Source: a phage. From it: 4,221 bases of DNA. Below, piece after piece: positions 1,325 through 4,125 of this stretch; within the stretch, counting starts at the first letter, position 1, and each line of letters starts with the position of its first letter. The position numbers and the translations under genes are program-made. A model generated the notes under the pieces. The model saw only the letters and a program-made list of their open reading frames with translations. It did no database searches and was not told the DNA's origin. The stretch is taken from the sequence record NC_138367.1. One strand, written 5' to 3'.

Positions 1325-1350
1325 AACTTTGGGTCAATTTGATCATGGCA
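1250..1350 (+). promoter_or_regulatory. Approximate S-site (replicase/S1 binding region just upstream of and overlapping the coat start), placed by positional homology
   Basis: Established knowledge for Qbeta: an internal replicase/S1 binding site lies immediately 5' of the coat initiation codon. Coordinates are transferred from memory and not derivable from this sequence alone. Confidence 0.35.
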
Positions 1351-1746
1351 AAATTAGAGACTGTTACTTTAAGTAACATCGGGAAAGATGGAAAACAAAC
1401 TCTGGTCCTCAATCCGCGTGGGGTAAATCCCACTAACGGTGTTGCCGCGCTTTCACAAGCGGGTGCAGTTCCTGCGCTGGAGAAGCGTGTTACCGTTTCG
1501 GTATCACAGCCTTCTCGTAATCGTAAGAACTACAAGGTCCAAGTTAAGATCCAGAACCCGACCGCTTGTACTGCAAACGGTTCTTGTGACCCATCCGTTA
1601 CTCGCCAGGCATATGCTGACGTGACTTTTTCGTTCACGCAGTATAGTACCGATGAGGAACGAGCTTTTGTTCGTACAGAGCTTGTCGCTCTGCTCGCTAG
1701 TCCTCTGTTGATTGATGCTATCGATCAGCTGAACCCAGCGTATTGA
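1345..1746 (+). CDS. cp: Major coat (capsid) protein
   Basis: AUG at 1345 (MAKLETVTLSNIGKDGKQTLVLNPRGVNPTNGVA...) to UGA at 1744..1746 is 402 nt = 133 aa, matching the levivirus coat protein in size and sequence. The ORF-track start at 1321 is a UUG overlapping the A2 stop and is not the real start. Confidence 0.92.
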   Translation: MAKLETVTLSNIGKDGKQTLVLNPRGVNPTNGVAALSQAGAVPALEKRVTVSVSQPSRNRKNYKVQVKIQNPTACTANGSCDPSVTRQAYADVTFSFTQYSTDEERAFVRTELVALLASPLLIDAIDQLNPAY

Positions 1747-2337
1747 ACACTGCTCATTGCCGGTGGTGGCTCAGGGTCTAAACCCGATCCGGTTATCATT
1801 CCGGATCCACCGATCGATCCGCCGCCAGGGACAGGTAAATATACTTGTCCTTTCGCAATTTGGTCCCTAGAGGAGGTTTACGAGCCTCCTACTAAGAACC
1901 GACCGTGGCCTATCTATAACGCTATCGAACTCCAGCCTCGCAAGTTTGATGTTGCCCTTAAAGATCTTTTGGGCAATACAAAATGGCGCGACTGGGATTC
2001 ACGGCTTAGTTATACCACGTTTCGCGGTTGCCGTAGCAACGGTTATATTGACCTTGATGCGTCTTATCTTGCTACTGATCAGGCTATGCGTGATCAGAAG
2101 TACGATATTCGCGAAGGCAAGAAACCCGGTGCTTTCGGTAACGTTGAGCGATTCATTTATCTTAAGTCGATAAATGCTTATTGCTCTCTTAGCGATATTG
2201 CGGCCTATCACGCCGATGGTGTGATAGTTGGCTTTTGGCGCGATCCATCTAGTGGTGGTGCCATACCGTTTGACTTCACTAAGTTTGATAAGACTAAATG
2301 TCCTATTCAAGCCGTGATAGTCGTTCCTCGTGCTTAG
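1345..2337 (+). CDS. A1: A1 read-through protein (coat protein with C-terminal extension; minor capsid protein required for infectivity)
   Basis: The coat frame continues through UGA 1744..1746 into ...TLLIAGGGSGSKPDPVIIPDPPIDPPPGTGKYTCPFAIWSLEEVYEPP...AVIVVPRA and ends at tandem stops UAG UAA (2335..2340). Total is 330 sense codons including the read-through codon. The Gly/Pro-rich linker after the coat domain is typical of A1. Confidence 0.85.
1744..1746 (+). other. Leaky UGA stop codon of the coat gene (programmed read-through site, decoded at low frequency by tRNA-Trp)
   Basis: The coat ends in UGA followed by A (UGA-A). The same frame stays open with no stop from 1747 to the UAG at 2335..2337, which I checked codon by codon. 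This is the hallmark of Qbeta-type A1 read-through. Confidence 0.85.
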
Positions 2338-2342
2338 TAACT

Positions 2343-2347
2343 AAGGA
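2343..2347 (+). promoter_or_regulatory. Shine-Dalgarno element for the replicase gene (AAGGA)
   Basis: AAGGA at 2343..2347 lies 8 nt upstream of AUG 2356. The AUG at 2347..2349 overlaps the SD itself and is therefore an unlikely start. Confidence 0.6.
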
Positions 2348-2351
2348 TGAA

Positions 2352-2371
2352 ATGCATGTCTAAGACAGCAT
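2352..2371 (+). promoter_or_regulatory. Coat-protein translational operator hairpin at the replicase start (repressor binding site and packaging signal)
   Basis: Seen in sequence: AUGCAUGUCUAAGACAGCAU forms an 8-bp stem with a single bulged A (position 2356, the A of the start codon) and a 3-nt loop UAA (2361..2363). The replicase AUG (2356..2358) lies inside the 5' arm. This matches the known Qbeta operator architecture of 3-nt loop plus bulged A. Confidence 0.8.
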
Positions 2372-4125
2372 CTTCGCATAACTCTCTTAGCGCACAATTG
2401 CGCCGAGCTGCGAACACAAGAATTGAGGTCGAAGGTAACCTCGCACTTTCCATCGCCAACGATCTACTGTTGGCTTATGGTCAATCGCCATTTAACTCCG
2501 AAGCTGAGTGTATTTCACTCAGTCCGAGATTTGACGGGACCCCGGATCACTTTAGGATAAATTATCTTAAAGCCGAGGTCATGTCGAAGTATGACGATTT
2601 CAGCCTAGGTATTGATACCGAAGCTGCTGCCTGGGAAAAGTTCCTGGCAGCAGAGGCTGAATGTGCTTTAACGAACGCTCGTCTCTATAGGCCTGACTAC
2701 AGTGAGGATTTCAATTTCTCACTGGGCGAGTCATGTATTCACATGGCTCGCAGAAAAATAGTCAAGCTAATAGGAGATGCTCCGTCCGTTGAGGGTATGT
2801 TGCGTCACTGCCGATTTTCTGGCGGTGCCACAACAACGAATAACCGTTCGCACGGCCATCCGTCCTTCAAGTTTGCGCTTCCACAAGCGTGTACGCCTCG
2901 GGCTTTGAAATATGTTTTGGCTCTTAGAGCTTCTACACATTTCGATATCAGGGTTTCTGATATTAGCCCTTTTAATAAAGCAGTTACTGTACCTAAGAAC
3001 AGTAAAACCGATCGTTGTATTGCTATCGAACCCGGCTGGAATATGTTTTTTCAACTAGGCATCGGTGGCATCCTACGCGATCGGTTGCGTTGCTGGGGTA
3101 TCGATCTGAACGATCAGACGATAAATCAGCATCGCGCTCACGAAGGCTCCGTTACTAATAATTTAGCAACGGTTGATCTCTCAGCGGCAAGCGATTCTAT
3201 ATCTCTTGCTCTCTGTGAGCTCTTATTGCCCCCAGGTTGGTTTGAGGTTCTTATGGATCTCAGATCACCAAAAGGGCGGTTGCCTGACGGTAGTGTTGTT
3301 ACCTATGAGAAAATATCCTCGATGGGTAACGGATACACATTCGAGCTTGAGTCGCTTATCTTTGCTTCTCTTGCTCGTTCCGTTTGTGAGATACTGGACT
3401 TAGACTCGTCTGAGGTCACTGTTTACGGAGACGATATTATTTTACCGTCCTGTGCAGTCCCTGCCCTTCGGGAAGTTTTTAAGTATGTTGGTTTTACGAC
3501 CAATACTAAAAAGACTTTCTCCGAGGGGCCGTTCAGAGAGTCGTGCGGTAAGCACTACTATTCTGGCGTAGATGTTACTCCCTTTTACATACGTCACCGT
3601 ATAGTGAATCCTACCGATTTAATATTGGTTTTGAATAACCTATATCGGTGGGCCACGATTGATGGCGTATGGGATCCTAGGGCCCATTCCGTATACCTCA
3701 AGTATCGTAAGTTGCTGCCTAAACAGCTGCAACGTAATACTATACCTGATGGTTACGGTGATGGAGCCCTCGTCGGATCGGTCTTGATCAATCCTTTCGC
3801 GAAAAACCGCGGGTGGATCCGGTACGTACCGGTGATCATAGACCACACAAGGGACCGAGAGCGCGTTGAATCGGGGTCGTATCTTTACGACCTCTTTTCG
3901 CGTTGTTTCTCGGAAGGTAACGATGGGTTGCCTTTAAGGGGTCCGTCGAGTTGCGATTCTGTAGATCTATCTGCCATTGATCAACTTATCTGTAGGAGTA
4001 ATCCTACAAAGATAAGTAGATCTACCGGTAAGTTCGATATACAGTATATCGCGTGCGGTAGCCGTGTTCTGGCACCCTACGGGGTTTTCCAGGGCACGAA
4101 GGTTACATCTCTACACGAGGTATAA
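2356..4125 (+). CDS. rep: RNA-dependent RNA polymerase, replicase beta subunit
   Basis: AUG 2356 (MSKTASSHNSLSAQLRRAANTRIEVEG...) to UAA 4123..4125 is 1770 nt = 589 aa. The catalytic YGDD motif is encoded at 3424..3435 (TAC GGA GAC GAT, in ...SSEVTVYGDDIILPS...). Size and sequence match the Qbeta replicase. Confidence 0.93.
   Translation: MSKTASSHNSLSAQLRRAANTRIEVEGNLALSIANDLLLAYGQSPFNSEAECISLSPRFDGTPDHFRINYLKAEVMSKYDDFSLGIDTEAAAWEKFLAAEAECALTNARLYRPDYSEDFNFSLGESCIHMARRKIVKLIGDAPSVEGMLRHCRFSGGATTTNNRSHGHPSFKFALPQACTPRALKYVLALRASTHFDIRVSDISPFNKAVTVPKNSKTDRCIAIEPGWNMFFQLGIGGILRDRLRCWGIDLNDQTINQHRAHEGSVTNNLATVDLSAASDSISLALCELLLPPGWFEVLMDLRSPKGRLPDGSVVTYEKISSMGNGYTFELESLIFASLARSVCEILDLDSSEVTVYGDDIILPSCAVPALREVFKYVGFTTNTKKTFSEGPFRESCGKHYYSGVDVTPFYIRHRIVNPTDLILVLNNLYRWATIDGVWDPRAHSVYLKYRKLLPKQLQRNTIPDGYGDGALVGSVLINPFAKNRGWIRYVPVIIDHTRDRERVESGSYLYDLFSRCFSEGNDGLPLRGPSSCDSVDLSAIDQLICRSNPTKISRSTGKFDIQYIACGSRVLAPYGVFQGTKVTSLHEV
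2550..2870 (+). promoter_or_regulatory. Approximate M-site (internal replicase binding region within the 5' part of the replicase gene), placed by positional homology
   Basis: Established knowledge for Qbeta: an internal replicase binding site needed for plus-strand template recognition lies in the replicase gene roughly 1.3-1.6 kb from the 3' end. Coordinates are approximate, transferred from memory, and not demonstrated by this sequence alone. Confidence 0.3.

Follow-up and report, generated by a model that had tools for sequence, protein, structure and literature searches.

The 20 nucleotides at positions 2352–2371 of the window (the whole stretch of 4,221 nt analyzed here) are almost certainly the replicase translational operator of a Qβ-type phage. 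We computed the fold of this segment and its stability in context, established that it is identical to the Qβ operator, followed its conservation and covariation among relatives, and examined the conservation of the RNA-contact residues of the coat protein. The element does not differ from the textbook Qβ operator; the finding is real, was already known, and holds no new biology.

The window aligns end to end with the genome of phage TW18 (FJ483840; 95.8% identity, 100% of the window covered) and is 94.6% identical to the Qβ record AB971354. On the strength of such end-to-end matches to Escherichia phage Qbeta records, the window is a complete genome of Qubevirus durum, a Qβ-type single-stranded RNA phage of the Fiersviridae, and its + strand is both the genomic RNA and the mRNA. 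The ORF listing gives three large + strand ORFs, encoding the maturation protein, the coat protein with its read-through extension, and the replicase. The A1 read-through ORF (1345–2337) has 993 nt here. Its length is 990 nt in TW18 and in Qβ, and FrMerlot has 999 nt; relative to the 990-nt form, the read-through extension of this strain thus carries one extra codon.

The replicase start could be placed from its relatives and from the crystallized enzyme. The replicase start annotated in Qβ (2352), in TW18 (2353), and in 11 further relatives aligns with the ATG at 2356–2358. Residue 1 of the crystallized Qβ replicase β subunit (PDB 3mmp_G) is the Met encoded at 2356, and the 589 amino acids of that chain equal the length of the ORF opened there. 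The upstream ATGs at 2347 and 2352 were rejected as replicase starts, as they are present in the Qβ clade only, whereas the ATG at 2356 is invariant and matches the crystallized N terminus. Annotation of this genome should place the replicase start at 2356 and not at the in-frame upstream ATG at 2347. The latter lies inside the Shine-Dalgarno sequence, and mechanical ORF callers open the replicase gene at this position. The AUG at 2352 is out of frame, at the base of the hairpin, and begins a mini-ORF, AUG CAU GUC UAA (2352–2363), whose stop codon is the operator loop. The features discussed below are collected in Table 1.

Table 1. Operator, replicase start region, and associated features of the window
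Feature	Position	Strand	Basis
Coat protein gene, encoding the trans-acting repressor	1345..1746	+	98% identity to Qβ coat; PDB matches
Coat-gene segment predicted to pair with 2323–2349	1592..1660	+	Whole-genome MFE; p about 0.8 in 1.5–2 kb contexts
Neighboring hairpin CUUAG-UAA-CUAAG (extended form 2328–2350)	2333..2345	+	Folding, covariation, mapping to Qβ 2329–2341
Shine-Dalgarno sequence AAGGA of the replicase gene	2343..2347	+	Read from the sequence; 8-nt spacing to AUG
Coat-protein operator hairpin AUGC-A-UGUC-UAA-GACA-GCAU, AUGCAUGUCUAAGACAGCAU	2352..2371	+	Folding, identity to Qβ operator, covariation
Replicase AUG start codon, beginning with the bulged A2356 (A+1)	2356..2358	+	Invariant columns A31 T32 G33 of the replicase-start alignment (A1)
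Replicase (RNA-directed RNA polymerase β subunit) CDS, 589 aa	2356..4125	+	ORF listing; annotation of relatives; PDB 3mmp, 4r71, and 3agp matches
Three-base loop UAA (U2361, A2362, A2363); A2362 is A+7, A2363 is A+8	2361..2363	+	A+7 and A+8 invariant in 14 genomes
Hairpin GCGCA-CAAU-UGCGC, equivalent to Qβ stem-loop 35, operator-like in the virion	2390..2403	+	Folding, mapping to Qβ

Positions 2343–2371 read AAGGAUGAAAUGCAUGUCUAAGACAGCAU. The 20-mer at 2352–2371 adopts the fold ((((.((((...)))))))), in which 2352–2355 pair with 2368–2371 and 2357–2360 pair with 2364–2367. In all folds of the window, including the minimum-free-energy (MFE) structure of the full genome, the stem comprises 4 + 4 bp (8 bp) topped by the UAA loop, and A2356 remains unpaired. 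The sequence-only reading from which we started had described a hairpin with a bulged A and a UAA loop, the bulged A being the first nucleotide of the replicase start codon. Sequence and folds of 2352–2371 bear out this description, with A2356 opening the ATG at 2356–2358. That reading had also offered folding in genomic context as a check, to which an MFE structure lacking the hairpin would have been unfavorable. The hairpin is present in every local and whole-genome MFE structure, being kept in segments of 20, 29, 41, 81, 121, 146, 321, 701, 1461, and 2001 nt as well as in the 4221-nt genome. Ensemble pair probabilities, computed from nested sub-regions of up to 2 kb, are 0.72–0.88 for the operator in a 121-nt context and 0.82–1.0 in contexts from 321 nt to 2 kb.

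By itself, the stability of the operator hairpin is unremarkable (−5.7 kcal/mol, z = −2.4), with 7 of 200 shuffled sequences folding as well. A dinucleotide-shuffled genome is expected to hold 0.49 hairpins of the same architecture with A as the last loop base, and the shape is therefore no evidence by itself. At any one fixed position the expectation falls to ~1e-4, so that recurrence of this hairpin at the same site in 14 genomes is not chance. In an Rfam search of the whole window (E ≤ 1), no family matched the operator. The only hit, to mir-2574 at 1927–1999, scored 22 bits where the gathering score is 90 and was discarded as a sub-threshold chance match.

The 20-mer is identical to nt 2348–2367 of Qβ and to the Qβ RNA operator as printed (PMC12724129), and the earlier statement that the element is intact in this genome therefore holds base for base. 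The 20-mer also matches the Qβ operator in fold, in position over the AUG, in the loop adenines A+7 and A+8, and in having A+1 bulged. The element itself shows no difference from Qβ; elsewhere, the genome differs at about 5% of positions. The Qβ operator is described as requiring an eight-base-pair stem and a three-nucleotide loop (PMC12724129), and it has been crystallized with a coat-protein dimer (PDB 4L8H). The stem-loop containing the replicase start codon is described as the high-affinity operator of the coat dimer, which suppresses replicase expression (PMC10610835, PMC3561173). The Qβ hairpin is described as the repressor site of replicase translation (PMC10610835, PMC2978339), and late in Qβ infection the replicase cistron is repressed by excess coat protein (PMC2978339). 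The reading of 2352–2371 as a coat-protein operator hairpin is thus supported both by identity over 20 nt to a characterized operator and by a coat protein 98% identical to its ligand.

The operator of MS2 has a 7-bp stem and a four-base loop with a critical A at −4; its bulged A at −10 is essential, and its AUG lies in the 3′ arm. In contrast, the operator of the window has a three-base loop, an 8-bp stem, the AUG in its 5′ arm, and a bulge tolerant of change. An assignment to the MS2/R17 type was rejected on the three-base loop and on the position of the AUG in the 5′ arm. Loop size and stem length also distinguish MS2 from Qβ-type hairpins in the literature (PMC12724129). Despite these differences, the MS2/R17 (Emesvirus) operator resembles the Qβ type in being a hairpin at the replicase start, bound by a coat dimer through unpaired adenines and acting both in repression and as a packaging signal (PMC3561173, PMC10610835). 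The fold of the MS2 coat protein is likewise related to that of the window coat protein, which gives weak PDB matches to the PRR1 and MS2 coats.

For the comparison among relatives, we used 60-nt segments anchored on the annotated replicase start from 14 genomes, that is, the window and 13 relatives. The Q. durum rows are the window, Qβ, TW18, BZ1, BR12, FrMerlot, M11, and MX1, and the Q. faecium rows are NL95, SP, FI, HB-P24, BR8, and HB-P22. The core GCAUGUC-NAA-GACA, including the AUG and the loop adenines A+7 and A+8, is invariant or nearly so in these 14 genomes, with loop position +6 being either U or A. The outer stem reads AUGC/GCAU in the Qβ clade, CUGC/GCAG in M11 and MX1, and UAGC/GCUA, AAGC/GCUU, or UUGC/GCAA in Q. 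faecium. The two outermost pairs change on both sides, from A-U to U-A in 4–5 rows and from U-A to A-U in 5–6 rows. The protein code does not impose these changes, since the 5′ partners are non-coding and lie upstream of the AUG. Only these two outer pairs covary; the upper stem shows no variation and is thus uninformative. Part of the conservation reflects protein constraint, as the 3′ arm of the operator is coding sequence.

Standard pairs occupy 94% of the operator cells, versus 23–50% when the 3′ partner is slid by 1–3 columns (a range computed for the two-helix structure as a whole). The covariation score is 0.398 versus 0.154 for shuffled columns, and 0 of 500 column shuffles reach either this score or the number of cells changed on both sides, a control that is indicative only because the rows are related. 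RNAalifold, to which no structure was given, recovers the operator hairpin independently. These data indicate that the operator structure has been maintained in evolution through compensatory changes.

Several relatives depart from the window in detail. The predicted folds of M11 (2348–2369) and MX1 (2347–2368) pair the first AUG base (A) with a U and bulge a C from the 3′ strand, which accounts for the two pairs scored as broken for these phages in the ungapped alignment. The irregularity in the M11 and MX1 stems is at the same height as in the other operators, on the opposite strand. In SP (X07489; 2443–2453), the upper stem is UGCC/GACA, with a C-A mismatch, whereas all other genomes have UGUC/GACA. 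Either the stem is truly weakened in SP or the mismatch goes back to an old sequencing error; at this position the SP-like strain BR8 carries U. The operators of M11, MX1, SP, NL95, and FI are like that of the window in position, 4 + 4 bp architecture, NAA loop, and core, and unlike it in their outer pairs, in the predicted C bulge of M11 and MX1, and in the C-A mismatch of SP. A scan of IMG/VR with the core GCATGTCNAAGACAGC returned 60 loci, nearly all of them chance matches in large DNA-phage contigs. Locus L056 (4184 nt, match at 2366–2381) alone resembles phage FI in size and in match position, and the scan thus adds no new diversity.

The bulged A at the start codon is a true feature of this genome, but it is not a defining, universal, or clearly essential one. 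According to work by Witherell and Uhlenbeck in 1989, it is reportedly dispensable for binding of the Qβ coat protein. That the bulged A is neither universal nor clearly essential follows from the folds of M11 and MX1 and from the tolerance of the Qβ coat protein for bulge changes in vivo (PMC7952577). The same high-throughput in vivo data describe the wild-type Qβ site as sub-optimal and the coat protein as promiscuous (PMC7952577).

A cognate Qβ-type coat protein with the appropriate RNA-contact residues is encoded in the same genome. The coat protein of the window matches PDB entries 5kip, 1qbe, and 4l8h with E values of about 1e-76 to 1e-82. It carries three substitutions relative to the Qβ coat (mature numbering), namely G9S, S34A, and A113V, and both Ser9 and Ala34 are also found in M11 and MX1. 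Tyr89 is present, and the adenine pocket's Ser, Gln, and Lys are invariant among seven aligned coat proteins. In the Qβ complex, the last loop adenine enters this pocket (PMC12724129), and Tyr89 stacks on the bulged A in PDB 4L8H (PMC11724954). Tyr89 is reported to stack on both A+1 and A+7 in the coat-operator complex. At the equivalent position (column 90 of the coat alignment, A2), SP and FI have Phe and NL95 has Ser. The SP, FI, and NL95 genomes, which lack Tyr89, still keep the bulged A and the NAA loop.

The Shine-Dalgarno sequence ends four unpaired bases upstream of the first base of the operator hairpin. The sequence-only reading had the Shine-Dalgarno sequence and the AUG packed into and next to the hairpin. 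This is accurate insofar as the AUG is inside and the AAGGA adjacent; the Shine-Dalgarno sequence itself is outside the hairpin. Part of it lies in the 3′ arm of a neighboring hairpin (2333–2345) that also contains the UAG stop codon of A1. The extended form of this hairpin (2328–2350) has a folding energy of −7.1 kcal/mol (z = −3.9), has p of about 0.17 in a 2-kb context, and covaries across the genus at 5 of its 7 pairs. Its apex corresponds to Qβ 2329–2341, which is stem-loop 33, operator-like in the virion model 7LHD.

Two partners are predicted for the Shine-Dalgarno sequence: 2331–2335 in the local hairpin or 1592–1596 in the coat gene. In the whole-genome MFE structure, the region 2323–2349, which takes in the A1 stop codons and the final part of that gene together with the GGAUG of the Shine-Dalgarno region, pairs with the coat-gene segment listed in Table 1. 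Within this helix, 2345–2349 pair with 1592–1596, about 750 nt upstream of the Shine-Dalgarno sequence, with p of about 0.8. Qβ, M11, and MX1 are predicted to form this long-range pairing too. One compensatory change in the helix, U-A to A-U, distinguishes the Qβ clade from M11/MX1. The replicase initiation site is opened when the coat gene is translated (PMC2978339), and the predicted pairing of the Shine-Dalgarno sequence with the coat gene fits this translational coupling. In Q. faecium, the only upstream structure predicted is the local hairpin, and a long-range helix that reaches the same coat region begins immediately 3′ of the operator. On the other side of the operator, the hairpin at 2390–2403 sits 19 nt downstream. 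With stem-loops 33, 34, and 35, three consecutive coat-contacting stem-loops flank the replicase start.

Binding, repression, and virion contact are taken from the Qβ literature, and we carry this picture over to the strain because its operator is 100% identical and its coat protein 98% identical to those of Qβ; all three would be expected to hold here. In the proposed mechanism, the RNA folds into the 8-bp hairpin with a three-base loop, and the replicase AUG sits in the 5′ arm. At early stages of infection this hairpin, at about −6 kcal/mol, would be weak enough to let ribosomes initiate once translation of the coat gene frees the adjacent Shine-Dalgarno sequence. As coat protein builds up, a coat dimer would bind the hairpin, with A2363 entering the adenine pocket and A2362 and the bulged A2356 stacking on Tyr89 of the two subunits. 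Lying across −4 to +16, the bound dimer would cover the AUG and abut the Shine-Dalgarno sequence, such that the 30S subunit would be blocked and replicase synthesis would stop. The contact between coat and hairpin would then persist in the virion, where the hairpin would be one of about 33 coat-binding stem-loops.

An alternative places packaging first, with the hairpin mainly a nucleation site for capsid assembly, and so the primary packaging signal, and translational repression secondary. The hairpin alone gives foreign RNA preferential packaging into Qβ particles (PMC5399791), it has been termed a strong encapsidation site (PMC10610835), and in the Qβ virion model 7LHD the apical part of the operator, stem-loop 34, is bound to a coat dimer of the capsid. 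However, this model contains 33 operator-like coat-binding stem-loops throughout the genome, the true operator lies on a C/C dimer rather than on the pentamer-forming A/B dimer, and 5′ stem-loops are the proposed starting point of assembly, which would begin during replication. Moreover, translational control, and not packaging, accounts for the fact that the hairpin sits invariably over the replicase AUG in every relative. We therefore regard packaging as an unlikely primary role. The earlier claim that the hairpin nucleates encapsidation keeps its basis in preferential packaging and in the capsid-dimer contact, but is overstated for one stem-loop among 33 in a particle whose assembly is proposed to begin at the 5′ end. 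It is also rather improbable that RNA structure alone mainly controls replicase translation, with the Shine-Dalgarno sequence held by the coat gene or by 2328–2350, the AUG held in the stem, and coat binding adding little. The long-range pairing found in the whole-genome MFE and in partition functions, its prediction in Qβ, M11, and MX1 with a compensatory change, and the opening of the replicase start by coat-gene translation (PMC2978339) are all in keeping with such control. Yet this mechanism is complementary to coat-mediated repression rather than exclusive of it, given that excess coat protein represses the replicase cistron (PMC2978339) and that the coat-operator complex has been crystallized. 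In addition, the Q. faecium Shine-Dalgarno sequence lies in a local hairpin instead while the operator is still conserved, and the virion shows the local stem-loop 33 and not the long-range helix.

A further alternative, a local structure that arose by chance or from coding constraint alone and lacks any specific function, would agree with the modest energy z-scores of the hairpin and with the occurrence of similar architectures in 39% of shuffled genomes. This explanation is effectively refuted by the comparative data and the published complex structure: the hairpin occupies the same position in 14 genomes of two species, its compensatory changes are two-sided with 5′ partners in non-coding sequence, and it is identical to an experimentally characterized protein-binding site. 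The preferred reading thus remains that of a replicase operator bound by coat protein.

We also considered, as a tentative and on balance doubtful extension of the operator reading, a model in which, in place of a single operator, the hairpins at 2333–2345, 2352–2371, and 2390–2403 form a coat-binding cluster coupled to a conformational switch. The region 2323–2349 would toggle between pairing with the coat gene (1592–1660), which is coupled to translation, and hairpin 33, which is coat-bound and packaged; binding at the operator would drive this toggle cooperatively and so link repression to packaging. The individual parts of this model are in the literature, while the switch itself is what we infer here.

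As the strain keeps the classical Qβ replicase operator, tagging and packaging tools built on the Qβ hairpin should work with its coat protein. The minus-strand complement of 2352–2371 also has a predicted fold, equally stable at −5.7 kcal/mol, with an 8-bp stem, a UUA loop, and a bulged U on the 3′ side. Because its loop again ends in A, this minus-strand hairpin formally satisfies the minimal rule of stem, loop, and last A.
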